Origin: Acidimicrobiales bacterium
Lineage (GTDB): Bacteria > Actinomycetota > Acidimicrobiia > Acidimicrobiales > CATQHL01
Direction: 5' to 3'
DNA length: 64,000 nt
Assembly (NCBI GenBank): GCA_963664235.1
Contig: OY760933.1
Coordinates: 1,043,920-1,107,919 of the forward strand
In this document: positions 9,500 to 24,479 of the stretch, one piece after another
Layout of the letters: every line of letters starts with the position of its first letter
Position numbering within the stretch: the first letter of the stretch is position 1
The notes under the pieces: model-generated
Told to the model about the DNA's origin: nothing
What the model saw: the letters and a program-made list of their open reading frames with translations, nothing else
Database searches by the model: none
Position numbers and translations under genes: made by a program

Positions 9500-9584
9500 G
9501 GGTCGGTGCCCGAGCGGACAAAGGGAGCAGGCTGTAAACCTGCCGGCAGCGCCTTCGGAGGTTCGAATCCTCCCCGGCCCACCA
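9500..9584 (+). tRNA. tRNA-Tyr (GTA)
   Basis: GGGTCGG/CCGGCCC acceptor stem, GCAGG-CTGTAAA-CCTGC anticodon arm, long variable arm, GGTTCGAATCC, CCA. Confidence 0.96.
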
Positions 9585-12898: not shown

Positions 12899-14010
12899 GT
12901 ATTCCTCACTTTCCGGTAGAACGGGCGGCGCACGACCTCCACCGGGAGAGCGCGGCCGCGGACATCGACTTCGAGAGTGACACCGGGGCTCGCAAGCTCG
13001 GCCGGAAGGTAAGCCATGCCGATGCCGAGGCGCAGGCTGGGGCTGAAGGTCCCGCTGGTGAGTCGCGCCACCGCCTCGCCGGCGGGCTCGTGCACGGCGA
13101 ACCCCGCTCTCGGCACGCCGCGGCCGCGAGCCATCAGATGGCAGAGCCGTCGGCTGCGAGCCCGGGCCTTCGCCTCCAAGAGCGCTTCCCGTCCGGTGAA
13201 CGGCGCTCCGTCGTCGAGGCTCACCGCGAATCCCAGCCCGGCCTCGTAGGGGTGCGTGGTGGCGTCGATGTCATTGCCGTGAAGCGGCAGCGCCGCCTCG
13301 AGTCGCAACGTGTCGCGTGCTCCGAGGCCTACGGGCGTGGCCCCCCCGCCCACCAGCGCGTCCCACAGCGCCCCGGCACCGCCGGCGCCGACGATGCACT
13401 CGCCGCCGTCTTCGCCCGTGTAGCCGGTCCGAGCGAAGAGCACGGGTGAGGCGTCCCAATCAAGTTCCACGCAGTCCCGCGGTGCCAGCGCTGCCAGGCC
13501 CTCACCGAGGACGGCGCTGAGCAGGCCGATCGCCTCGGGTCCCTGGACGGCGAGCATCACCGTGTCCTGGGTCACCTCGGCTGCGTCGTCGCCGGCGACG
13601 GACCGCAACCGCGCGAAGTCCTCGCCGGCATTGGCCGCGTTGTGGACGATCAGCCAGCGTTCGTCGGGCAGGCGGTAAATGAAGACGTCGTCGTCGATAC
13701 CGCCGGACTCGTTGCAGTAGAGCGAGTAGTGCGCCCTACCCACCTCCAGGGTGTTCACGTCGAAGGTCGTCACCGAGCGCAGCAGCGACGCCGCCCGCGG
13801 TCCGCGCAGCCAGACCCGTCCCAGGTGCGACACGTCGAAGACACCCACCCGCTCCCGCACGGCCTCGTGCTCGCGAACCGTGCCGGCGTACTGCAGCGGC
13901 ATCTCCCAGCCGGCGAAGGGCGCAAAGCGGGAGCCGGCCGCCTCATGGCGATCACGCAGTGTCAGCGTGTGCAGCCCGCCGTCACTGCCGGGCCCTTGGC
14001 TCTCGCCCAC
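12895..14010 (-). CDS. gcvT: Glycine cleavage system aminomethyltransferase T
   Basis: FAGWEMPLQY, FDVSHLG, ARTGYTGEDG, GLGARDTLRLEA, TSGTFSPSL. Confidence 0.96.
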   Translation of the reverse strand: MGESQGPGSDGGLHTLTLRDRHEAAGSRFAPFAGWEMPLQYAGTVREHEAVRERVGVFDVSHLGRVWLRGPRAASLLRSVTTFDVNTLEVGRAHYSLYCNESGGIDDDVFIYRLPDERWLIVHNAANAGEDFARLRSVAGDDAAEVTQDTVMLAVQGPEAIGLLSAVLGEGLAALAPRDCVELDWDASPVLFARTGYTGEDGGECIVGAGGAGALWDALVGGGATPVGLGARDTLRLEAALPLHGNDIDATTHPYEAGLGFAVSLDDGAPFTGREALLEAKARARSRRLCHLMARGRGVPRAGFAVHEPAGEAVARLTSGTFSPSLRLGIGMAYLPAELASPGVTLEVDVRGRALPVEVVRRPFYRKVRNT

Positions 14011-14099
14011 GCCTCGAATTTATCCCCGCTCGACCGCCGGCGGCGACCACCGCCCGCTCCCGGCGAGGCTGTCGTCGGTTCGGCTGCTCATTGGCCTGC

Positions 14100-14912
14100 T
14101 CAGTCCCGCTGCACCGCATCCCCGGCAGACCACACCGTGCCGGTGCGGGTCCGGCGCAAGGTTCCGCCCGGAGTTTCTCCCCCTGCTGCCGCCTCGCCAC
14201 CCGCCAGGGCCGCTGCCACACCGAGGCACCGGCGCCCGTCCCCCGAGCGGTCGGGTGTCGGACCCGCACCGTCGCCGGACCCGGGCGGTGGTGGGCAACC
14301 GATCATCGCCGTAGGGCTGGCGGCGAGCATGTCCCACTCATCGAGCACGCGGGCAATCCGCTGCGCGGTTCGGACGGTGCCGCCGGTCACGAGCGCGGCT
14401 CGCTCGGCGTCGTCGCCCCCGTTCGCCGCGGCGGGCAACGAGTCGATGCGCGCCGCGGCAACCACAGACAAGCGCACGGCCGCCGCGGCCACCCGGGCCG
14501 CGAGGGGCACAAGGCTCTCGAGGGGGATCTTGGGATCGCGGCCGATGGACGTCCCGTGACTGAGCCATTCCAGAGCGTCAGGGATGTCGCAGTCGGCCAG
14601 GACCCGGTCCACATCTTCCCGCACGCCCTCGGGCAGCCCGAGGGACGATCGGGCCTTCCGGCGGCTGCGCCGGGACTTCGTCTCGGCCGCCTCATGGGCG
14701 AGCGACTTGAGGGCGTTCTCCAGAATCGCCTGCGATTGAGCGCACACGCCCCGCATGCGCGCCGCCACTGCGCCGCCATAGCCGTCGGCGTCGCTGCTCT
14801 CCAGCGCTGCCCGCTCGTCGGAGAGCGGGTAGAGGAGAGCCCCGAGCAGGACAAGCGCCCGGCGGGCACTGTCCATCGATGCGACTGCATCGTTGCTGTC
14901 TGCAGCAGGCAA
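14100..14912 (-). CDS. Hypothetical protein, possible degenerate HEPN-like helical domain
   Basis: 270-aa ORF, TTG start preceded by GGAGAGGAG; VCAQSQAILENALKSL resembles the HEPN N-terminal helix. Confidence 0.5.
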   Translation of the reverse strand: MPAADSNDAVASMDSARRALVLLGALLYPLSDERAALESSDADGYGGAVAARMRGVCAQSQAILENALKSLAHEAAETKSRRSRRKARSSLGLPEGVREDVDRVLADCDIPDALEWLSHGTSIGRDPKIPLESLVPLAARVAAAAVRLSVVAAARIDSLPAAANGGDDAERAALVTGGTVRTAQRIARVLDEWDMLAASPTAMIGCPPPPGSGDGAGPTPDRSGDGRRCLGVAAALAGGEAAAGGETPGGTLRRTRTGTVWSAGDAVQRD

Positions 14913-15192
14913 ACCGATCTCCTCTCCCGATTCCCGCCTCCCGGCGGGCCCCGGCCATCTGCGGCGACGAATGAAGGATCATGCCACTTCGGTGCCGCAG
15001 GCCTATCGGCCACCGGTGAACAGTAGTCGGACCGCTGCACTTCTCGTAGCGCGTCCATACGATTCAAGCCTGTTCGGGCCAACCCAACGACACCGGTGAT
15101 GCACTGGTCCGCGGCGCGGGGGGAACCGTCGAGGGTCGGCGCCTCCTAGAGTGGCTTCCGGTGGCGGGGCGGAACAAGGAAAGGGAGACCAG

Positions 15193-15999
15193 ATGAGTGC
15201 AACGGGCGCGGACATGTTCCGCCTGGACGGCAAAGTGGCGCTGGTAACCGGCGGATCCGGCGGCATCGGCAAGGCGCTGGGAATCGGCCTGGGGTTGGCC
15301 GGCGCCCGCCTGGCGCTCACCGGCCGCTCGCAGGAGAAACTCGACGCCAACGCCGCCGCAGCGAAGGCTGCCGGCTGTGACGACGTCGAGACGTTCGGCG
15401 ACTTCGACCTGACCCATCCGGGCCGGCCCGCGGCGCTCGCGGACACGGTCGCAGAGCGGATGGGAGGCGTCGACATCCTCGTCAATGTGGCAGGTCTCAA
15501 CCGTCGCAAGCCCGCCCTCGACTTCGCCGAAGAGGACTGGGACGCCGTCATGAACCCCAACCTGAAGGCCGTGTTCTTCCTGTCGCGGGAGGTGGCTCGA
15601 CTGTGGGTCGAGGGCGGTCGGGACGCCGAGAGCGACGGTAGGGGCAAGATCATCAACATCGCCAGCCTGGCGGGGGCGATCGGGATCGCCGAGATCGCCC
15701 CGTACGGCGCCTCGAAGCTGGGTGTGGTGGCACTCACGCGGTCCCTGGGCGTCGAGTGGGCCCGCGAGGCGATCTGCGTGAACTGCATCGCGCCGGGCTA
15801 CCACGAGACGCCTATGACCATCGCCCAGGGGATCTTCGACAACCCGAAGATCGGGCCGTGGGTACGCAGCCGCATCCCCATGGGGCGACTCGGAACGACC
15901 GAGGACCTGGTCGGGCCGGCGATCTACCTGGCCTCGGCGGCCAGCGACTACATGACCGGCCAGACCGTCTTCGTGGACGGCGGCTTCGAGGCGGGCTAG
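15193..15999 (+). CDS. SDR oxidoreductase (KduD/gluconate 5-dehydrogenase-like)
   Basis: TGGSGGIG, YGASK, VNCIAPG, YMTGQTVFVDGG; GGAG RBS. Confidence 0.9.
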   Translation: MSATGADMFRLDGKVALVTGGSGGIGKALGIGLGLAGARLALTGRSQEKLDANAAAAKAAGCDDVETFGDFDLTHPGRPAALADTVAERMGGVDILVNVAGLNRRKPALDFAEEDWDAVMNPNLKAVFFLSREVARLWVEGGRDAESDGRGKIINIASLAGAIGIAEIAPYGASKLGVVALTRSLGVEWAREAICVNCIAPGYHETPMTIAQGIFDNPKIGPWVRSRIPMGRLGTTEDLVGPAIYLASAASDYMTGQTVFVDGGFEAG

Positions 16000-16053
16000 C
16001 GGGACCCGCCTCAAGAGCCCACCAGGCCGACGAGCCGGTGATTCGCGACGCGC

Positions 16054-16089
16054 CTCAGGTGAGGTAGCGCTGGCGCCACTCGCCGGAGC
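16054..16089. repeat. 36-bp direct repeat, left copy (orphan duplicate of the htpX 3' end; att-like)
   Basis: CTCAGGTGAGGTAGCGCTGGCGCCACTCGCCGGAGC, identical to 23609-23644. Confidence 0.95.
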
Positions 16090-17597
16090 TAGTCCGTGCT
16101 GCTAGTCCAAGGGCCGCGGGGTGCGGCCGGATCGAAACGCACCTTCTGGACATCAAGTGCATCAAGTCCTTCCTGACCGGTTGTTCGAAGCCAGGCGTCC
16201 TGCCCGTACCACATCGGTTCCAAGATCGCGCTGAGTTCAGGCGTCAGTCGTTGCTCCGCATGAAGACGCACCGCCTCCCGTGGCAGATCGCCGAGTGCAC
16301 GTAGCGCCAGCAACCGCGCCTGCCCGGCTATCGCGCAGGCGTCGAGCAAACTGTCGATGCAACGGTGTCGCGCCAGTAGGCAAGCAGCCAACTCGGCGCG
16401 CTCCACGTCCTCGGCCAAGAGCCACTCGGTCAGTGTCTCCTGCACGCTATGGGGCAGTCCCTCGATGGCGGCGATGGCGTGAAGTGCAACGATCTCGTCG
16501 CTGTCGAGTCCGAGTCGGATCAGCAGGTCGGGTCGATGCAAACCGCCTTGGCCGAGCCCCCAGGCTGCTGCCGCTCGTACTTCCGAAGGAAGGCTTGACG
16601 AATCGGCGACTCGGGCTAGTTCATTGGCCGCAGCGCCGTCGCGCAACTCCGTCAACGCGAACACGGCCTCCATTCGCTGTTCCGTGTCGACATCGTCGCC
16701 GATGGCGCCGTCAGCTATCGCGGGAGCCCATGACGCGGCATCGAGTCGGGCGAGGTTCGCTCGGGCTTCGAGCCGGGTTCGCCAGTCCTCCGCTGTGTCC
16801 GCCTCGATGGCGAGGAGCCCGTTGACCAAGTCCCGGCGTCCAGAGATTCCTACCGCCCGGACAGCGGCGTAACGATCCACCGGATCGTTGGACCGCAGGT
16901 CCGCCGCAAAGTTCCAGGAATCACCATCACAAGCGAGAGATCCCACTGGCTGTACGACTCCAGCCACGATCGTCTCGCCGGCGGCGAACTCGTCGCCGGG
17001 AATCAGGTAGACGTGCCTTGGCGGCGTCCAGTTCCGCCAATGCCAGTACCGGCGCTGCACACCGAAGTCATCGTGGTAGCAAATCCGGCCTTCGGCATCG
17101 AGCCCGAGGAACCTGCCGCGGCGTGACGGCACCCAGCATGGCCAGGTCAGCGTCGATTCGGAGCCTTCCGACGCCGCCTTCGGCGCCGACCGCCGGGCTT
17201 GGCTGATACTGGCCCTCAGCGCCGCTCTGGAGAAGCAGACGGGCGCGCCTGCGTATGGAGGGAAGTGGCTCAGATCAGTACGTATGAACGCGAAGAGGTC
17301 GCCGTCTCGCATTCCGCCCGCGTCCCACTCGCGGCCGGGCGCGTCAGAGTGCGACAACACGACCCCCAGCTTGGACTTGGCGCGCGCTTCGACGCGCAAG
17401 CCGCAGCGGACGCACAGAAGGTCGGGCAGGCGGAGGCGCTTGACCTTCGTCTGCCACACCTTGTTGGCCATGGCGTAGCGCTCGAGTTCGACCATCCGAT
17501 GGCCGTGCTCGTCACTCAGATCAAAGGCCACGGCGGCTGCGCCAACAGCGCCCATCGAGACGAATCGGGCGAAGTCGGCATCCTCCTTGAAGCCCAT
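16089..17597 (-). CDS. Putative PD-(D/E)xK-type restriction endonuclease fused to C-terminal HEAT-like repeats
   Basis: N-terminal LRLPDLLCVRCGLRVEARAK (PD..E-x-x-x-K variant with CxxC); C-terminal repeats DRYAAVRAVG, RMEAVFALTE, EVRAAAAWGLG, ARLLALRALG; divergent from a DNA methyltransferase; ATG 17597 has TACGCT 6 nt upstream. Confidence 0.6.
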   Translation of the reverse strand: MGFKEDADFARFVSMGAVGAAAVAFDLSDEHGHRMVELERYAMANKVWQTKVKRLRLPDLLCVRCGLRVEARAKSKLGVVLSHSDAPGREWDAGGMRDGDLFAFIRTDLSHFPPYAGAPVCFSRAALRASISQARRSAPKAASEGSESTLTWPCWVPSRRGRFLGLDAEGRICYHDDFGVQRRYWHWRNWTPPRHVYLIPGDEFAAGETIVAGVVQPVGSLACDGDSWNFAADLRSNDPVDRYAAVRAVGISGRRDLVNGLLAIEADTAEDWRTRLEARANLARLDAASWAPAIADGAIGDDVDTEQRMEAVFALTELRDGAAANELARVADSSSLPSEVRAAAAWGLGQGGLHRPDLLIRLGLDSDEIVALHAIAAIEGLPHSVQETLTEWLLAEDVERAELAACLLARHRCIDSLLDACAIAGQARLLALRALGDLPREAVRLHAEQRLTPELSAILEPMWYGQDAWLRTTGQEGLDALDVQKVRFDPAAPRGPWTSSTD

Positions 17598-17622
17598 CTT
17601 GAGAGCGTAGGGTTGACATTCG

Positions 17623-19437
17623 ATGACAGCTACGGGCCACGCTGCCTCAGTCGAGAGCGCTGCACGACGACCGGGCGCGGAAGCGCCGACGTCAGACGTC
17701 ACCGGGAACGGGGAATCCGAGTTGGCGGGCACGATCTCAGTCCGCCGCAGCGACCCCGTCTACATGGCCCACGCGTATCTCACGAAGGTACCGGTGGCCG
17801 CGATCACGCCGTTCATCGAGGCGTTCACAAAGCCGGGCGATGTAGTCCTCGATCCGTTCGCCGGTTCCGGGATGACCGGTGTGGCCGCCGCTGTCACTGG
17901 CCGGCGCGCTCAACTCTTCGACATATCTGTGCTGGGCCGTCATATCGGCGCCAACTACGTCAACCTGGTCGACCCTGACATGATGCACCATCACGGCGAA
18001 GCTGTGTTGGAGAACGCCGCCCGACGAGTCGGAAATGCGTACGGAGCACGTTGCGAGGCGTGCGGTTCTGCCGCGGAACTCGTCAAGACCGTGTGGTCGG
18101 CGGTCCTCGAGTGCCAAGCCTGCAGCGAGGGGGTTAATTACTACCGGGCGTTGGAGGCCGCAGGGTGGGCAAAGCAGCGAATGACGTGCCCAAGCTGCGG
18201 CACTCGCTTCGGTGCCCGCTGTCGACGACTAGCTGAAGAGCCCGTACTCGACTCGATCCGCTGCCTCTGCTCGCGGACTCAGCTCGAACAGGACCACAGG
18301 TCACCGCTGGAGTTTCCCGATCCCGCCGGCCTGACCTGGCCTGACGTGCCGATAGGTGAATCGCGCCAGATGTACGTTGCGTCCGCCCTCGGGCGCAACG
18401 GTCTGACAACAACAGGGGCGTTCTACTCCCCTCGGAACCTGTGCGCGCTCGCCGCGCTGCGAGACGCCATCGAGGCCGTCTCCGAGCCCCAGGTGCGGGC
18501 GAAGTTGCTCTTCGCGTTTACCGCCGTGCTGACACGTGCGAGCAAGCGGTACCAGTGGTCGCGGCAGCGCCCGCTCAATGCCGCCAACGCCAACTACTAC
18601 GTCGCCCCAGTGTTCTACGAGTGGAACGTGTTCGATCTGTTCGACCGCAAGGTTGCGGCCGCGATTCGCTCCGACGAATGGATCAGGCAGCACCAGAACG
18701 GTGATTCCTCGACAGGCGCCCGCTGCCCGGACGTGGTGTACGACCTAGCCAGCGCTGACAAGCTCCCGCTGGAAGACGACTCGGTGGACTACGTCTTCAC
18801 CGATCCCCCATTCGGCGCCAACATCTTCTATTCCGACATGAATCTGTTCCAAGAGGCTTGGCTCTCCGAGGTGACGGATCCTGCCGCCGAGGCGGTGGTA
18901 GACCGCGTGGATACTGGCGCCCCTCGCACCGCCGAGCGTTACGAACGGATGCTTGCCGGCGCACTACGAGAATGTCGACGTGTCGTCAAGCCTGGCGGGC
19001 ATATCACACTGCTGTTCGGCAATAGTTCCGGCGCTATGTGGCAGCTGCTTCAGCGAGCGTTGACCCGTGCTGGGTTGGAGCCGGTGCCAGAGTTGATTGC
19101 CGTTCTCGACAAGGGCCAGCGCTCCGTTAAGGGTCTCGCCTCCGGATTCGAGAACGTGTCGACGCTGGATCTGATGCTGACTCTTAGGCCGGCTTCAGAC
19201 GGGCACGGCTTGCTCTTGACACCGCCGCCCGGTGTTGTGGACGACTTCGTCGTTGACCTGCTAGCGAGAGATCCCGAACCAACGCCCAGCCGGCTCTACC
19301 TGGCCCTGCTGCGGCATGGTCTCACTCAGGGTTGGGACCTCAGCCACCTCGATCTGCAGCGTGTCACAGCACTCCTCAGATCCACCGATGTAGCGGTCGA
19401 TCGCCAAAGCGCACGCGTACTCTCCGCCAACTGCTAA
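17623..19437 (+). CDS. Amino (N6-A/N4-C) DNA methyltransferase with Zn-ribbon insert
   Basis: HAYLTKVP, motif I VLDPFAGSGMTG, Cys pairs CEAC/CQAC/CPSC, motif IV DYVFTDPPF, ECRRVVKPGG; exact start uncertain. Confidence 0.88.
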   Translation: MTATGHAASVESAARRPGAEAPTSDVTGNGESELAGTISVRRSDPVYMAHAYLTKVPVAAITPFIEAFTKPGDVVLDPFAGSGMTGVAAAVTGRRAQLFDISVLGRHIGANYVNLVDPDMMHHHGEAVLENAARRVGNAYGARCEACGSAAELVKTVWSAVLECQACSEGVNYYRALEAAGWAKQRMTCPSCGTRFGARCRRLAEEPVLDSIRCLCSRTQLEQDHRSPLEFPDPAGLTWPDVPIGESRQMYVASALGRNGLTTTGAFYSPRNLCALAALRDAIEAVSEPQVRAKLLFAFTAVLTRASKRYQWSRQRPLNAANANYYVAPVFYEWNVFDLFDRKVAAAIRSDEWIRQHQNGDSSTGARCPDVVYDLASADKLPLEDDSVDYVFTDPPFGANIFYSDMNLFQEAWLSEVTDPAAEAVVDRVDTGAPRTAERYERMLAGALRECRRVVKPGGHITLLFGNSSGAMWQLLQRALTRAGLEPVPELIAVLDKGQRSVKGLASGFENVSTLDLMLTLRPASDGHGLLLTPPPGVVDDFVVDLLARDPEPTPSRLYLALLRHGLTQGWDLSHLDLQRVTALLRSTDVAVDRQSARVLSANC

Positions 19438-19629
19438 CAGCGGCTGCTTGGGTGAGCAGTCGCGCGCGCCCGTCAGGTCCGGTCAGGCTCGGCCTGGCCG
19501 GGGACACCCTCCTCCGACGCTCGCCGCAGTCGTTCCTGGCCGCAGGCTTGGAATAGACAGACAAACTTCGTTGTTGTAGTTGCATCATTGGCATTCCGGC
19601 CACCTCAAGAACTGCCCGGAAGGGACGCA

Positions 19630-20955
19630 ATGGCAGAACATGAACAGATACCCAGCAGCGCCCCTGCAGTCGAACCGCGCGGTCCGGTCTTCATCTCGTA
19701 CCGTCATAGCGACGCCAGAGCGCTAGCGGAATCCCTCGCGTGGGCGCTTCGGGCAGCCGGCGTGCCTGTCTGGCACGACGTGACCGACCTTCCTCCTGGC
19801 GACACCGATCGCCGCCTTGGCGAGGCGCTCGATTCCGGGCTGTCCGGCGCCGTGGTCATCGTCACACCCGAGATCGGGCAGTCTCAGGTAATTCGCGATC
19901 TCGAGTTGCCACGTCTGCTGGACCTTGAGCAGGAGTCCGAGTTCACTCTTGCGGTCGGATCAACGGTTGAAGCAGGTGACAGCACCGGGAGTCTCGACTA
20001 CTCGGCACCTGACCAGCTTCTCGGTCAGCCACCCGGGACGCTGCAACGCCTTAACCAGAGACGAGTGGCAGACGCCGAAGAGCGAGCGGAACTGGCAAAC
20101 GCTCTGGCCAGACAGCGTCTTGCGCGGCTTCGGACCGAGATCCAAGCCGCGGGTGGAGTGCTCGTGATCGATATCCAGACTCGCGTTCCCCCGGTAGCGA
20201 CAGCCCAGGACGGCGATCTGGTTCTGCGGCTACGACCACCTGTGGACGGTGAGCGCCGCCCGCACCGCGGAGGCCTCGAGAACTTGCACCGGTTTCTCGG
20301 TGAACTACCGCTGCTGATTGCCACGTCAGGCGCCCGTGCCATACGAGTGCGCGGAGGGGCACACCTGTCGGTTGCCTGTGCCATCGGCGCAGCACTCCCC
20401 ACCACGCTTGTGGGCACCGTCGAGGTTGTCGATACGGCAGGCCACACGTGGGTGCTGTCCGGACAGGCGCCATCACCCACCCGCGAGCGGCTCTGCGGGG
20501 CTGTCACACCCCCTGGATACAACTGTGGGCATGGTCCAGTGCTCGCCTTCATCGACCTGCTGCCGCAGCAAAGCGCCGCTGCGTTCGACGCGATGCTCCG
20601 GTCAGGCCGAGCCGCCTTCGCGGGCGTTCTCCACTTGCGCCCACGCGGTGCTGGCCTGCTCAATCCTGACGACGCCGAGATGCTCGTGGGTGAACTCAAC
20701 GCAGAAATCCGCGCGCTCGCAAGTACGCATCACACGACGGAGGTCCATCTGCTCCTGCGGTGCCCGTACCCGGTTGCGGTTCTTCTCGGCCGCACCCTCA
20801 ACACCCTCACGATCAATCTCTACGAATGGGAGGACACCCCTGATGGCGACTCCGGGCCTGATCCACGGTACGTCCCGAGCATCGTGTTGCGCTCGGGAAG
20901 TGGGGGCTCACCAATCGACCGCATCACAGCTCCACCGTTGAGCTGCCGATCTTGA
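19630..20955 (+). CDS. CBASS effector, TIR-SAVED (NADase plus cyclic-oligonucleotide sensor)
   Basis: TIR: VFISYRHSD, GVPVWHDVTDLPPG, IRDLELP (catalytic Glu); SAVED: GGAHLSVACAIG, EVHLLLRCPYPVAVLLG, INLYEW. Confidence 0.9.
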   Translation: MAEHEQIPSSAPAVEPRGPVFISYRHSDARALAESLAWALRAAGVPVWHDVTDLPPGDTDRRLGEALDSGLSGAVVIVTPEIGQSQVIRDLELPRLLDLEQESEFTLAVGSTVEAGDSTGSLDYSAPDQLLGQPPGTLQRLNQRRVADAEERAELANALARQRLARLRTEIQAAGGVLVIDIQTRVPPVATAQDGDLVLRLRPPVDGERRPHRGGLENLHRFLGELPLLIATSGARAIRVRGGAHLSVACAIGAALPTTLVGTVEVVDTAGHTWVLSGQAPSPTRERLCGAVTPPGYNCGHGPVLAFIDLLPQQSAAAFDAMLRSGRAAFAGVLHLRPRGAGLLNPDDAEMLVGELNAEIRALASTHHTTEVHLLLRCPYPVAVLLGRTLNTLTINLYEWEDTPDGDSGPDPRYVPSIVLRSGSGGSPIDRITAPPLSCRS

Positions 20956-20968
20956 AAGGAATGTGTTA

Positions 20969-21991
20969 ATGGAGACGCTGCACACGCAGTTCAGCCAGGC
21001 CCTGTCGAACATCGAGATCAGCGACGCCAGGCGCCAGCGCGCGATTGCTGCGCATACAGAGATCCAAGACTCGCTCTCCAGCGACAGGATTTTGTGCGAC
21101 TGGGGAATCAGTACACGGCTCATCGGCTCCTACAGCCGGCACACCGCAATTCACCCTGGCAAGGACGTCGACGTGTTCGCACGCCTCGAACGCCTCGACG
21201 CGGGAGCCAACCCTGAAGCCGTCTATCAGCGCGTGTGGGATCTGCTCTTTGCGCGGTATGGCAGTCGAGCCACGCCGCAGGCACGCAGCATCAAGGTCGA
21301 GTTCCCGAGCGGGGCCGGAATAGACACCAGCTTTGCTGTCGACGCCGTGCCCGCCGTCCGCTCTGGCAGCCGATGGGCGATCCCTGCCACGGACAGGAGC
21401 TTGTGGGCCGACAGTCCGAGCCGTTGGGTCGTGACCGATCCTGAGCGGTTCGGTGCGCTCTCAAGCGACCTGAGCACGGCGGCTTGGAGCCCCATCGTGC
21501 GGGGCCAGGATGCCTACAAGCCCGTGGTAAAACTGATGCGACAGGTACGCGAGACGCACCTGGGCGATCTAAGGCCCGGCGGCCTGTACGCCGAATTCGC
21601 CACCTACGACGTCTGGAACTCCAGGCTGGTTCGCGGTAGCGAGTGGTGCCAACTCCTCGCTGCGACGCTTGGTGCTGTGGCTTCTAGGTTCGAGGCCGCA
21701 CCAACGAAGCCGCTCGTGGATCCTGGGCTCGGCACGCCGGTTGACCCGGCACTCGACGCAGCCGTCTGGCTCTCAGCCGCCCAGACTTTCTTCAGGCTCG
21801 CCGATCTGGCTGCCGAGGCCCTGAACTTGGGAAAGTGCACGGCCGCAGCACGGTGGCGAGAGATCCTGGGAGAAAACTCGAGGGGGAAGGTCTTCCCTGT
21901 GCCACCCGGGTGTGACGCCAGAGGATTTGCCACGACAGGCATGGCCGGACTAGTCGCGGCTAGGCCGAGGGAGGCTCAAGGATTCGGATGA
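20969..21991 (+). CDS. CBASS cGAS/DncV-like nucleotidyltransferase (CD-NTase)
   Basis: LIGSYSRHTAIHPGKDVDVF, RSIKVEF, VDAVPA, TDP, KPVVKLMRQ, WREILG; C-terminus ...AQGFG. Confidence 0.92.
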   Translation: METLHTQFSQALSNIEISDARRQRAIAAHTEIQDSLSSDRILCDWGISTRLIGSYSRHTAIHPGKDVDVFARLERLDAGANPEAVYQRVWDLLFARYGSRATPQARSIKVEFPSGAGIDTSFAVDAVPAVRSGSRWAIPATDRSLWADSPSRWVVTDPERFGALSSDLSTAAWSPIVRGQDAYKPVVKLMRQVRETHLGDLRPGGLYAEFATYDVWNSRLVRGSEWCQLLAATLGAVASRFEAAPTKPLVDPGLGTPVDPALDAAVWLSAAQTFFRLADLAAEALNLGKCTAAARWREILGENSRGKVFPVPPGCDARGFATTGMAGLVAARPREAQGFG

Positions 21992-23565
21992 GCGAGTCGG
22001 CACCGGTCGACACCTTCGATCAAGCGTCACTTGAGTGCTTTATAGCGGAGTTGGTGGCGGCTGGATTCGAACCAGCGCCGGGAACCGGTAGGAGAATCTG
22101 GGTAGGACCCATTCATCCCGCTCTTGCGCCGCTCACCGACGCCCAAGAGATGCGCCTTTTGCTCCGAGACGGATGGCCTGTGGTCTTTCCCTACTTGTTC
22201 GCGGGGGGTCTGCTCACGAACCACCTCACGTCCGATGGATACGTGTGCCTCTGGCACGAAGGCGACAGCTCGGGGGAATGGGTCACGCTTAACGGCGTCC
22301 TTGATCGGCTCATCCAGTGGAGCAACAGTGCCAAGCATGGGTGGGATCCTGCTGGCCTCGCCCAGGACGCGCAACTCAACTTCCAGACGAAGCATGCAGC
22401 AGTCGCCACGTTTGACCTGGATGAACTACAACTTGGCCGCGCCGGGACGTGGGGATCGTTCCACGGCAGAGCGCACCACCCTCTGCACATCTCACTTCAT
22501 CCGGGCCGCCGACCTGACAATCAGGGACTCGACGGCCTGTGGATTCGTTCGACTGTCCTGGACGTGCCGCCGCGGAACCTGGCCGAGTTGAGACAGGTAC
22601 TCAATCGAGCCCAATTGCACGGTCTCGACCGGGCGCTCGACTCTCGCCGTAACGGCGGCGAGACGCTCCAGCCGAGCGGGTCGACTGATGTCATCCTGTT
22701 TGCGTGGGATCGAGAGGAACTTCGGCACGTGCTCGTCCTTGCCCTCGAAGGGACCGGCGCCGATACGACCGCGGTCGCCCTCCGACCCGGTCCCAGAGAC
22801 AGGAAGTCCCTCATGCTGCGAGCCGGACCCGATGCAACAGAACTTGCAGAACGGACGGTCGTCGTTCTCGGTTTGGGCGCACTCGGCGGTCATGTGTCGG
22901 TTGCATTGGCTGAGAGTGGCGTCACTCGACTCCAACTCGTTGACGGCGACCAGCTTCTGCCCGAGAACGCCGTTCGCCACGTGGCAGGCCAGCACGCGGT
23001 CGGGCACCCTAAGCCAGTCGTGGTGGCGGCGACCGTCGCCGATCACGCTCCGTGGACCGAGATCACCACGCTGGCAACTAACCCAATGTCTCCGGAGGCG
23101 CTCGGTCAGGCCATCACAGACGCTGATCTGGTTGTTGACGCTACGGGTGGCGGCGCAGCCACTCAGGCCATCTGCCTCAGCGCACTAGCTCAGGACAAGG
23201 CGGTTGTATCTGGCGCACTCTTCCGGGGTGGCGCCATCTCGCGAATACGGCGCCAAGGAACGCCTGGCGATACGCCCATTCTCGACCGGACACCGGCGCT
23301 CGGCTACCCGCTGATCCCATTTGGCGACGGCGATGACCTGATCCGGCCCGCGGTCGGCTGCTCTGGACCCGTGACGAACGCTCCACCAACGACAGTCCTA
23401 GCCGCGGCGGCACTAATCGCCGAGACGGCCATAGATGCCCTTACCGGCCGCTTGGCGCTACCGGACGAAATCATCGACGTCTACCGGGCTCTGCCCGACG
23501 AGCCGCCGTTCGACCGGATCGGGAGAGTGGCGCGGCGAGTACCAGAGGAACCCACTCTCGTCTGA
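21988..23565 (+). CDS. cap2: CBASS Cap2, E2-E1 (ThiF) ubiquitin-like conjugating enzyme
   Basis: E2: GWP..FP, NHLTSDGYVCLW; E1: VVLGLGALGG, VDGDQLLPENAVRH, LVVDATG, VGCSGP catalytic Cys; ATGA overlap with the CD-NTase. Confidence 0.88.
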   Translation: MSESAPVDTFDQASLECFIAELVAAGFEPAPGTGRRIWVGPIHPALAPLTDAQEMRLLLRDGWPVVFPYLFAGGLLTNHLTSDGYVCLWHEGDSSGEWVTLNGVLDRLIQWSNSAKHGWDPAGLAQDAQLNFQTKHAAVATFDLDELQLGRAGTWGSFHGRAHHPLHISLHPGRRPDNQGLDGLWIRSTVLDVPPRNLAELRQVLNRAQLHGLDRALDSRRNGGETLQPSGSTDVILFAWDREELRHVLVLALEGTGADTTAVALRPGPRDRKSLMLRAGPDATELAERTVVVLGLGALGGHVSVALAESGVTRLQLVDGDQLLPENAVRHVAGQHAVGHPKPVVVAATVADHAPWTEITTLATNPMSPEALGQAITDADLVVDATGGGAATQAICLSALAQDKAVVSGALFRGGAISRIRRQGTPGDTPILDRTPALGYPLIPFGDGDDLIRPAVGCSGPVTNAPPTTVLAAAALIAETAIDALTGRLALPDEIIDVYRALPDEPPFDRIGRVARRVPEEPTLV

Positions 23566-23608
23566 GCGGCGAAGTTCCGACCAGCGCCTGAGGTCTCCGG
23601 TGCGGTGG

Positions 23609-23644
23609 CTCAGGTGAGGTAGCGCTGGCGCCACTCGCCGGAGC
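23609..23644. repeat. 36-bp direct repeat, right copy (in-frame 3' end of htpX)
   Basis: Identical to 16054-16089; on the minus strand encodes SGEWRQRYLT-stop. Confidence 0.95.
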
Positions 23645-24479
23645 GGAGGCGCTTGACCCGCTCCTCGGTGGCCGGGTGGGTGGAGAACAGGCCGGCGAAC
23701 TCGACGCGCTGGCCGGCCAGCGGGTTCACGATGTAGTGCGAGGCCTGCTCGCGCGCCACCGGGGTGGGGATGCGGCGCCCGGCCCGGTCCAGCTTCTCCA
23801 GCGCCCGCGCCAGGGGCTCGCCGTCGCCCAGCAGCTGCGCGGCGGTGCGGTCGGCCTTGAACTCGCGGGTCCGGCTGATCGCCGACTGGACGAGGGCCGC
23901 CGCGATCGGGGCCAGGATCATGGTGGCCAGGAGCACCAACGGGTGCCCGCCGCCGCGATCCCTGCTGCCCCCGCCGCCAGTGAAGAGGGCGGCGAAGAAG
24001 GCGATGCGAGCCACCAGCGTGATCGCCATGGCGATTGCCGCCGCCACCGAGCCGATGAGGATGTCCCGGTTGCGAATGTGCATCAACTCGTGCGCCAGCA
24101 CGCCCTTGATCTCGGTCCAGGAGAGGTGCTCGATGAGTCCCGCCGTTATCGCTACCGCGGCGTTGTCGGGATTGCGCCCCGTGGCGAAGGCGTTGGGCTG
24201 CGGGTTGGGCGTGACGTACAGCCGGGGCTTCGGCAGCTTGGCCCGTGAGGCCAACTCCTCCACCACGGCGTGGTATTCGGGGAATTCGTGACGCTCCACC
24301 AGCCGGGCGCGGGCCGATGCGATGGCCAGCTTGTCGGAGAACCAGTAGGAGAAGCCGACGATGGCGAAGGCCAGGACCGCCCCCACGATGAGCCCGCCCG
24401 TCCCGAAGATGCCGCCGATGCCGATGCACAGGCCCCCCAACAACCCCAGCAGGACGAAGGTCTTGAAGCTGTTCTTCAC
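23610..24479 (-). CDS. htpX: Zinc metalloprotease HtpX (M48)
   Basis: PNAFATGRNP, GVLAHELMH, ISRTREFKAD, LFSTHPATEERV. Confidence 0.95.
   Translation of the reverse strand: MKNSFKTFVLLGLLGGLCIGIGGIFGTGGLIVGAVLAFAIVGFSYWFSDKLAIASARARLVERHEFPEYHAVVEELASRAKLPKPRLYVTPNPQPNAFATGRNPDNAAVAITAGLIEHLSWTEIKGVLAHELMHIRNRDILIGSVAAAIAMAITLVARIAFFAALFTGGGGSRDRGGGHPLVLLATMILAPIAAALVQSAISRTREFKADRTAAQLLGDGEPLARALEKLDRAGRRIPTPVAREQASHYIVNPLAGQRVEFAGLFSTHPATEERVKRLRSGEWRQRYLT

Follow-up and report, generated by a model that had tools for sequence, protein, structure and literature searches.

The integrase-free defence hotspots cDHS1/2 of Pseudomonas aeruginosa are flanked by core genes, and in the passages of that work cited here their transfer through homology of the flanks, leaving no scar, is proposed (PMC10250203). 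Defence hotspots without identifiable mobilisation are described for E. coli in the cited part of a second study (PMC10121019), and the same passages of the Pseudomonas work present as an open question how defence systems enter and leave hotspots that carry no mobility genes (PMC10250203). One-ended homologous recombination combined with illegitimate joining is described, in the part of the source drawn upon, from laboratory transformation and conjugation (PMC3240628). Here we describe an islet in a 64,000-nucleotide stretch of the genome of an Acidimicrobiales bacterium (contig OY760933.1, positions 1,043,920 to 1,107,919; hereafter the window). The islet is a two-module anti-phage cassette in a small core-gene-flanked hotspot, between the convergent genes for a short-chain dehydrogenase/reductase (SDR) and for the zinc metalloprotease HtpX. 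We hold it probable, if only just, that the cassette entered by a recombinase-independent insertion anchored in homology with one of its flanks.

The repeat, the empty site and its occupants

The islet is bounded by a 36-bp direct repeat, CTCAGGTGAGGTAGCGCTGGCGCCACTCGCCGGAGC, with copies at 16054-16089 and 23609-23644, both on the plus strand and without a mismatch between them. An earlier note on this DNA had read the repeat in this way, taking the right copy for the last ten codons and the stop of htpX and the left one for an orphan, and scans of the window and of the genome bear it out. The right copy consists of one base, the htpX stop codon (23610-23612), ten codons and two further bases. 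On the left, the stop codon of the adjacent gene, which encodes a probable nuclease with HEAT repeats (nuclease-HEAT), is the complement of 16089-16091, so that the repeat abuts this stop without a spacer and base 16089 belongs to both, an overlap that the same note had pointed out. The features of the site and its flanks are as follows.

15151..15999, plus strand: SDR, left core flank (Pfam adh_short_C2, 1.2e-51; GC content at third codon positions, GC3, 0.88)
16000..16054, no strand: native SDR-htpX spacer of 55 nt, the pre-insertion site, which aligns to the gaps of empty alleles
16054..16089, plus strand: left (orphan) repeat copy, the displaced native htpX 3' end
23566..23608, no strand: cargo-borne spacer beside the functional copy, unlike the gaps of empty sites
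23609..23644, plus strand: right repeat copy, functional 3' end and stop of htpX
23610..24479, minus strand: htpX (M48 zinc metalloprotease), right core flank (Pfam Peptidase_M48, 2.4e-33; GC3 0.95)

The 36-mer has no further match in the window at up to 3 mismatches, and none of 100 shuffled sequences held two or more matches. In the genome, a single contig of 3,494,148 bases, it is present twice only, without a reverse copy (a control pattern gave 0), and no third copy of the core was found genome-wide at up to 3 mismatches. It is therefore not a dispersed repeat, an objection that the earlier note had raised against itself. The pair is one of 23 isolated exact direct repeats of at least 24 nt spaced 2-80 kb apart in the genome.

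Which of the two copies is the native one? The spacer of 55 nt that separates the orphan from the SDR stop aligns to the SDR-htpX gap, likewise of 55 nt, of a congener (G010) and of a metagenome locus (L113), with a z of about 4.3 and a score attained by none of 300 shuffles. Beside the functional copy, the 44-nt spacer aligned to the empty-site gaps no better than shuffled sequence, and this spacer, between htpX and the Cap2 gene of the cargo, shares its length and a CCTCAGG motif with its counterparts, being common to the four genomes that bear a cyclic-oligonucleotide-based anti-phage signalling system (CBASS). From these alignments it follows that the orphan is the resident htpX end and that the functional end arrived with the cargo, together with its spacer; the orphan and the 55-nt spacer are the native empty-site junction, and the spacer of the functional copy is foreign.

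The site was compared in the 17 other genomes of the genus, all of which hold htpX. It is empty in 8 of them (G002, G003, G004, G005, G006, G007, G010 and G015), SDR and htpX lying tail to tail with 13-113 nt between their stops; SDR orthologues adjoin htpX in 8 congeners at 90-97% amino acid identity. The functional 36-mer is identical to that of the window in G002, G007 and G015 and differs at 1-4 positions in the other five. The empty allele with a gap of about 55 bp, which the earlier note had predicted, thus exists, and the 55-nt form occurs in G010 and L113. A metagenome scan with HtpX gave one close relative among 80 loci, and that locus is empty. The methylase and nuclease-HEAT genes of the window, with or without CBASS, are present in five congeners, giving six occupied loci with the window. 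All five cargo genes recur in the same order in G014, in G009 (followed by three core-like genes) and in G012, where SDR is not nearby. G013 carries the methylase-nuclease pair only, with an insertion sequence (IS), and in G008 a methyltransferase-HNH gene is followed by an SDR fragment and then by the pair. G017 has an ABC ATPase gene between SDR and htpX; G016 and G011 show other synteny, and the contig of G001 ends inside htpX.

Constant core flanks around alleles that are empty or variously occupied, with alternative cargo in G008 (methyltransferase-HNH) and G017 (ABC ATPase), agree with the earlier reading of the htpX side as a defence hotspot. The SDR/htpX site is a core-gene-flanked defence hotspot, real but fairly ordinary. 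No mobile-element gene accounts for the cargo; the sole such gene is the IS transposase beside the cargo of G013. This is a 560-amino-acid DDE transposase (DDE_Tnp_1_6, DUF772; L036, 5365-7047) between the nuclease-HEAT gene and SDR, and it adjoins a remnant of the ABC ATPase gene that is intact in G009 and G017. The alternative cargo of G008 is a 535-amino-acid fusion of an N6_N4 DNA methylase with an HNH nuclease domain (L040, 1160-2767) between htpX and the SDR fragment.

The cargo also differs from its surroundings in composition. The five cargo genes have a GC3 of 0.67-0.74, versus 0.85-0.95 in gcvT, SDR, htpX and HAD, a computation across the boundaries that confirms the larger share of A/T-ending codons seen in the earlier note. 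Total GC is about 0.70-0.73 outside the islet and 0.61-0.67 inside, changing at both edges, and the 7,519-bp interior (0.644, against 0.692 for the genome) falls in the lowest 2.6% of genome windows of the same size (7.5 kb). The islet ends show no terminal inverted repeats or other transposon-like end; the best inverted pairs of the islet are 71-78% complementary and internal. Between 14000 and 26000 there was no Rfam match at E <=0.1, and the nearest tRNA lies at 9500-9584. A promoter and terminator scan returned no promoter-like and one terminator-like site, neither more than in shuffles. Matches of the htpX product to the NCBIfam HtpX models reach 2.1e-88 and stay below the cut-offs. Between gcvT and SDR, a 355-amino-acid open reading frame (ORF; 13959-15026, plus strand) overlaps the gcvT start and has no Pfam or NCBIfam match.

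Insertion scars and the probable route of entry

The occupied loci carry duplicated flank ends of different kinds. In the window, 36 of 36 bases of htpX are repeated. In G008, the repeat around the same methylase-nuclease pair comes from SDR, the opposite flank: the pair lies between a 160-bp SDR 3' fragment and the intact SDR, with 159 of 160 positions identical. In G012, the interval equivalent to 19438..19587 additionally holds a decayed htpX 3' pseudo-copy of about 145-170 bases between the TIR-SAVED and methylase genes, 101/145 to 128/177 identical to extant htpX ends and carrying stops and frameshifts; a second copy beyond the nuclease gene matches the genome's own htpX end at 26 of 30 positions and that of G013 at 26 of 28. 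G012 thus shows two serial insertions, that of the pair and, later, that of CBASS between htpX and the pair. In G009, G013 and G014, boundary comparisons did not rise above shuffles and no scar was detected.

The junctions can be placed closely. The nuclease genes of the window, G009, G013 and G014 have a common final TAG, beyond which the sequences are unrelated; with this TAG as the last common base, the window junction consists of 35 duplicated bases and one base of overlap. In G009 and G013 the DNA past the nuclease stop runs into the htpX-ABC spacer of G017, and in a relative in run X4, 12 other letters connect the SDR stop with the 3' end of the nuclease gene. The left junctions differ among carriers; on the right, the four CBASS-bearing species have similar junctions, with about 45 nt between the stops of htpX and Cap2. 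Two further candidates were rejected: the nuclease-SDR spacer of G014 showed no homology above chance to the repeat and spacer of the window, and a 47-nt repeat at genome positions 213042/218607, considered as a second gene-end scar, is the common end of two paralogous genes.

Divergence adds a second line of evidence. For the core genes HAD, htpX and SDR, pairwise synonymous divergence (dS) among the six carriers is 0.38-0.67. The island genes form a mosaic of 0.16-0.95: lowest for the methylase of G009 and G008 (0.16), 0.18-0.21 for TIR-SAVED between the window and G014 or G009, 0.27 for nuclease-HEAT between the window and G013, and high (0.78-0.95) for the Cap2 of the window and for most comparisons with G012. 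Values both below and above those of the core imply segments younger and older than the species splits, and such a mosaic favours exchange between species over simple descent. In a tree of 2.4 kb of flank, the occupied G013 clusters with two empty genomes, G002 and G015 (support 100/100).

Our favoured explanation is as follows. The islet would not have been placed by an integrase of its own. DNA from a related genome, in which the cargo was already joined to a copy of the htpX 3' end, would have entered through homology with the conserved flank, either by one-ended homologous recombination with an illegitimate join or by a single (Campbell-type) crossover of a circularised fragment carrying a piece of the flank. 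Either route would cut off the resident last 35 bases of htpX, leaving them as the orphan copy, and would replace the resident end by the identical incoming one, so that the repeat would be the scar of the insertion. Modules would be stacked at the site in this manner and swapped among species by recombination. A homology-anchored mechanism of this kind would account for every type of scar, for the stacking of modules and for the mosaic divergence.

Several points weigh against this explanation. No insertion event has been observed, and the mechanism is read from scars. The junction shows a single base of microhomology, little for illegitimate joining, and a RecA-dependent crossover would have only a short stretch of 36 bp to act on. 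The orphan htpX ends of the window and of G012 start within about 7 bases of one another, which a site-specific enzyme would likewise predict. Three of the six occupied loci lack a scar and call for other routes or later decay. The dS values derive from 100-600 codons per gene with unequal GC3. Finally, the flank tree is largely unresolved, with 10 of 16 inner branches open, so that gains and losses are not countable.

The alternative that survives best, although we consider it unlikely, is that of the earlier note: the repeats would be attL and attR, the attachment (att) sites of a recombinase targeting the htpX 3' end, and the cassette would be either mobilised in trans (cis-mobilisable) or the remnant of an element that lost its integrase. 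Much of the pattern fits, including an exact direct repeat that overlaps and restores a gene's 3' end, an orphan that is the native htpX end, an existing empty allele and the nearby starting points of the orphans in G012 and the window. The same genome holds islands bounded by 33-nt and 96-nt tRNA-end repeats, one of them with recombinases, and integrase-less att-flanked elements (CIMEs) are a described class, as far as the cited parts of the sources go (PMC5704250, PMC6323972). What finds no support is a site-specific recombinase with the repeat as its pair of sites. The five cargo genes contain no integrase or transposase domain, just as the earlier note had it, and neither do 36 further ORFs of at least 60 amino acids, whose sole match is a sub-threshold DUF6248; a site-specific recombinase was found in none of the six occupied loci, and the genome has no third core copy. 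The repeat differs by species: it comes from htpX in the window (36 bp) and in G012 (about 145-170 bp) and from SDR in G008 (160 bp), and three loci have none. Moreover, the nuclease stop abuts the core, leaving room for arm sites there only inside coding DNA, and since no spacer intervenes, loss of an integrase would have required a base-precise deletion. On balance, an att-site mechanism is the weaker reading compared with the homology-anchored one.

A recombinase acting from elsewhere in the genome, for which the earlier note had recommended a search, would have to be sought far away: five tyrosine recombinases lie at 2.41-3.47 Mb (PF00589 matches above the cut-off at 2.41, 2.484, 2.486, 3.147 and 3.465 Mb; three of the five are non-Xer), more than 1.3 Mb from the window at 1.04-1.11 Mb, and a genome-wide search for serine recombinases gave no PF00239 match. 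A tblastn search of the five tyrosine-recombinase domains against 60 nuclease-HEAT loci, of low sensitivity, gave no match of at least 60 amino acids at E <=1e-4. Among the papers listed by a search of open-access literature for htpX as an integration site, supplements aside, none names htpX.

Two other repeat-bounded regions of this genome can be recorded here. At 2460950-2487331 (G000:C1) an exact 33-nt tRNA 3'-end repeat occurs 26.3 kb apart, two tyrosine recombinase genes (2484430-2486482) lie beside its right copy, and the region looks like a classical integrated element. At 762102-781591 (G000:C1) an exact 96-nt direct repeat with a tRNA 3' half bounds a 19.4-kb lower-GC island. Besides a Mutator-family transposase, the island encodes functions of sugar use, namely GH65, mannitol dehydrogenase, a DeoR regulator and an ABC sugar transporter; PF00589 has no match inside, and this is a second integrase-less repeat-bounded island of the genome.

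It is more doubtful still that the islet is ancestral to the genus and vertically inherited, with empty sites arising by precise deletion between the repeats and the repeat kept exact by gene conversion. Four species share the gene order and have similar right junctions, and many pairwise island dS values (0.35-0.6) overlap those of the core. However, cargo GC3 is far below that of the core in every carrier, some dS values are well below the core (0.16-0.27) and others well above it (0.8-0.95), G013 is nested among empty species, the left junctions differ among carriers, and the orphan is identical at 36 of 36 positions while the functional 36-mers of congeners differ at 0-4.

That the duplication is an assembly artefact, covering an empty site and a cassette that is circular or placed elsewhere, is hardly credible: short-read contigs from runs of two other studies (X6 and X9), built with k=31, must break inside the 36-mer and so bridge neither the integrated, the empty nor the circular form, leaving integrated indistinguishable from empty plus circle, but the genome is a single 3.49-Mb contig, the four unique segments occur in both runs at 100% identity and similar depth, and in four other species the htpX-CBASS-methylase-nuclease order was likewise recovered, on contigs of 49 kb to 645 kb. 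Contigs of four runs were examined, none of which spanned the 36-mer; joints with sides shorter than 30 nt were disregarded (for example 16992 to 24173 in X3).

The CBASS and methylase/nuclease-HEAT modules

The cargo of the islet is as follows.

16089..17597, minus strand: nuclease-HEAT protein, 502 amino acids (Pfam HEAT_2 only), candidate restriction partner of the methylase
17623..19437, plus strand: DNA methyltransferase, N6/N4 amino-methyltransferase (Pfam N6_N4_Mtase, 1e-19; PADLOC MTase_II PDLC03312, 1.3e-97)
19438..19587, no strand: spacer from the methylase stop to the CBASS operon, its TIR-SAVED-proximal part conserved in 4 of 4 CBASS-bearing genomes
19588..20955, plus strand: TIR-SAVED CBASS effector (Pfam SAVED, 1.6e-12, and TIR_2, 5.2e-11; PADLOC PDLC00728, 3.4e-136)
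20963..21991, plus strand: CD-NTase, the CBASS oligonucleotide cyclase (Pfam SMODS, 1.7e-11; PADLOC PDLC00810, 5.8e-100)
21988..23565, plus strand: Cap2, an E1-E2 fusion (Pfam ThiF, 7.1e-20; PADLOC PDLC00847, 1.9e-152)

The earlier note had called all five genes defence-type, which holds for the CBASS trio and the methylase and is probable for the partner of the methylase. By homology, TIR-SAVED, CD-NTase and Cap2 are a CBASS operon, and one that is in itself ordinary. The TIR_2, SAVED and SMODS matches exceed their Pfam cut-offs, the PDLC00810 match spans positions 3-340, and Cap2 covers positions 1-515 of 523 of its model. No JAB domain, and hence no Cap3, was found in the 41 ORFs scanned (the 5 cargo genes and 36 others of at least 60 amino acids); the effector aligns to 167-582 of a JAB-fused PADLOC model, whose N-terminal part it lacks. 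Judging from family membership, infection would lead CD-NTase to make an oligonucleotide signal, whose binding by SAVED would switch on the TIR NADase, and Cap2 would prime the cyclase.

The second module is less familiar. The methyltransferase is clear (N6_N4_Mtase at 71.8 bits against a cut-off of 26.7; also a PglX-like PADLOC model at 3.3e-75). Its neighbour had been labelled a nuclease starting at 17732; the conserved start is at 17597 (MGFKEDADF), and HEAT_2 is its sole Pfam annotation, with no PADLOC or NCBIfam match. The label is nonetheless probably apt, given the predicted fold. An AlphaFold2 model built on 30 homologues (mean predicted local distance difference test score, pLDDT, 84.4) shows HEAT repeats in residues 227-467 (alphaRep match, Z 12.3), and residues 7-230 match the homing endonuclease I-Ssp6803I (2ost_A; Z 7.4, root-mean-square deviation 4.1, 133 of 148 residues aligned), which has a PD-(D/E)xK fold. 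P58, D59, E70, R72 and K74 are invariant in the 30 homologues. The model thus makes it probable that the N-terminal 230 or so residues are a PD-(D/E)xK nuclease domain. This assignment has its own counterweights: a Z of 7.4 is middling, the N-terminal domain folded alone gave a poor model (pLDDT 46.6), and a Pfam search with eight N-terminal domains of the family returned no meaningful match. Foldseek against the PDB with the protein found HEAT/ARM repeats only, a viral library gave no match at E <=0.001, and in a protein atlas the hits, scoring up to 0.79, were confined to unnamed HEAT clusters of the protein itself.

More than 580 homologues of the nuclease-HEAT protein were found. A methylase adjoins the homologue on the opposite strand, divergently, in 58 of 60 genome loci; the other two are without upstream DNA or are fragments. 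These loci, at 36-91% identity, come from records of Acidimicrobiia, Dehalococcoidia, Streptomyces, Nonomuraea and Corynebacterium. Occurrence of the family is patchy, with 4 of 201 sampled genomes of the order carrying it, and htpX is a neighbour in 5 of the 60 loci, all within the genus of the window. In the G058 locus the pair lies among housekeeping genes (RNR, IleRS), with no integrase in the 14 ORFs scanned. In the window both divergent starts (17598-17763) are uncertain: they are 25 nt apart if the ATG at 17623 is used, the longest ORFs share 110 nt, and the alignment of distant methylase homologues sets in at about residue 24. From the gene pairing and the fold we infer a candidate restriction-modification-like pair, in which the methylase would mark host DNA and the PD-(D/E)xK-HEAT protein would cut unmarked DNA.

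Two observations concern the nuclease-HEAT gene itself. A stretch of 16 nt at 17430-17445 in this gene recurs exactly at 23643-23658 in htpX, starting there where the right repeat has its inner edge. On the minus strand each copy translates as VKRLR; since this motif is invariant in the nuclease family even without an htpX neighbour, the match is probably due to chance and codon bias. Were the two copies to recombine, the nuclease-HEAT gene and htpX would be fused. In addition, 17437-17483 forms a separate 47-nt contig in X6 and X9 that is deeper than its neighbours (26 versus 18 and 53 versus 25), which fits a conserved nuclease-gene motif present in other organisms of those samples.

We advance one broader proposal, and only tentatively, that joins site and cargo: 'flank-copy' cassettes might be mobile without a recombinase of their own, here carrying an uncharacterised restriction-modification family whose nuclease would read DNA through its HEAT repeats. 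Such a cassette would travel joined to a short copy of the 3' end of a neighbouring core gene (36 bp or about 145-170 bp of htpX, or 160 bp of SDR). On reaching a new host, it would integrate at that gene through one homologous crossover that recreates the direct repeat, and host recombination across the repeat would excise the cassette again as a circle. If true, the cassette would be self-perpetuating, and the filling and stacking of integrase-free defence hotspots would be explained.

Comparison with described systems

What does this locus add? It keeps insertion scars at three ages, in sister species and with the same cargo, which larger hotspots have usually lost, and it thereby offers a compact natural case for recombinase-independent movement of cassettes. 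The additions are modest: flank-duplication scars that form a graded series, and a methylase/nuclease-HEAT pair, unnamed and widespread, that is a candidate restriction-modification family.

The CBASS module resembles type II CBASS with TIR-SAVED in its full-length PADLOC matches to CD-NTase, Cap2 E1-E2 and TIR-SAVED; it differs in that the islet has no Cap3/JAB gene or domain. The second module is like a type II restriction-modification system in that an amino-methyltransferase is strictly paired with a probable PD-(D/E)xK protein. Unlike such systems, the partner has a 270-amino-acid HEAT-repeat C terminus and matches no PADLOC, NCBIfam or Pfam nuclease model, and its activity is a prediction.

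As for the route of entry, CIMEs and integrase-less att-flanked islands, such as the microcin H47 island as presented in the cited part of its description (PMC3191183), share the small cargo, a direct repeat over a gene end and the lack of a recombinase. Here, in contrast, the searches brought up neither a cognate integrase-bearing element nor a third att copy, and the repeats vary by gene and length. Homology-facilitated illegitimate or Campbell-type integration offers a parallel in mechanism, with one homologous anchor, a non-homologous far join and a duplicated piece of variable length, although in the present case it would have to be read from natural scars alone, with a microhomology of one base.

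The site as a whole belongs with the core defence hotspots. They share with it, in the cited passages of both studies, constant core flanks, variable defence cargo, lower GC and no mobile-element genes (PMC10250203, PMC10121019). The site described here is tiny by comparison (0-7.5 kb) and lies in Acidimicrobiia-like genomes from sponge metagenomes. Whereas scar-free exchange is proposed for those hotspots in the text cited (PMC10250203), the SDR/htpX site has kept duplicated 3' ends of its flanks, of 36, 160 and about 145-170 bp.

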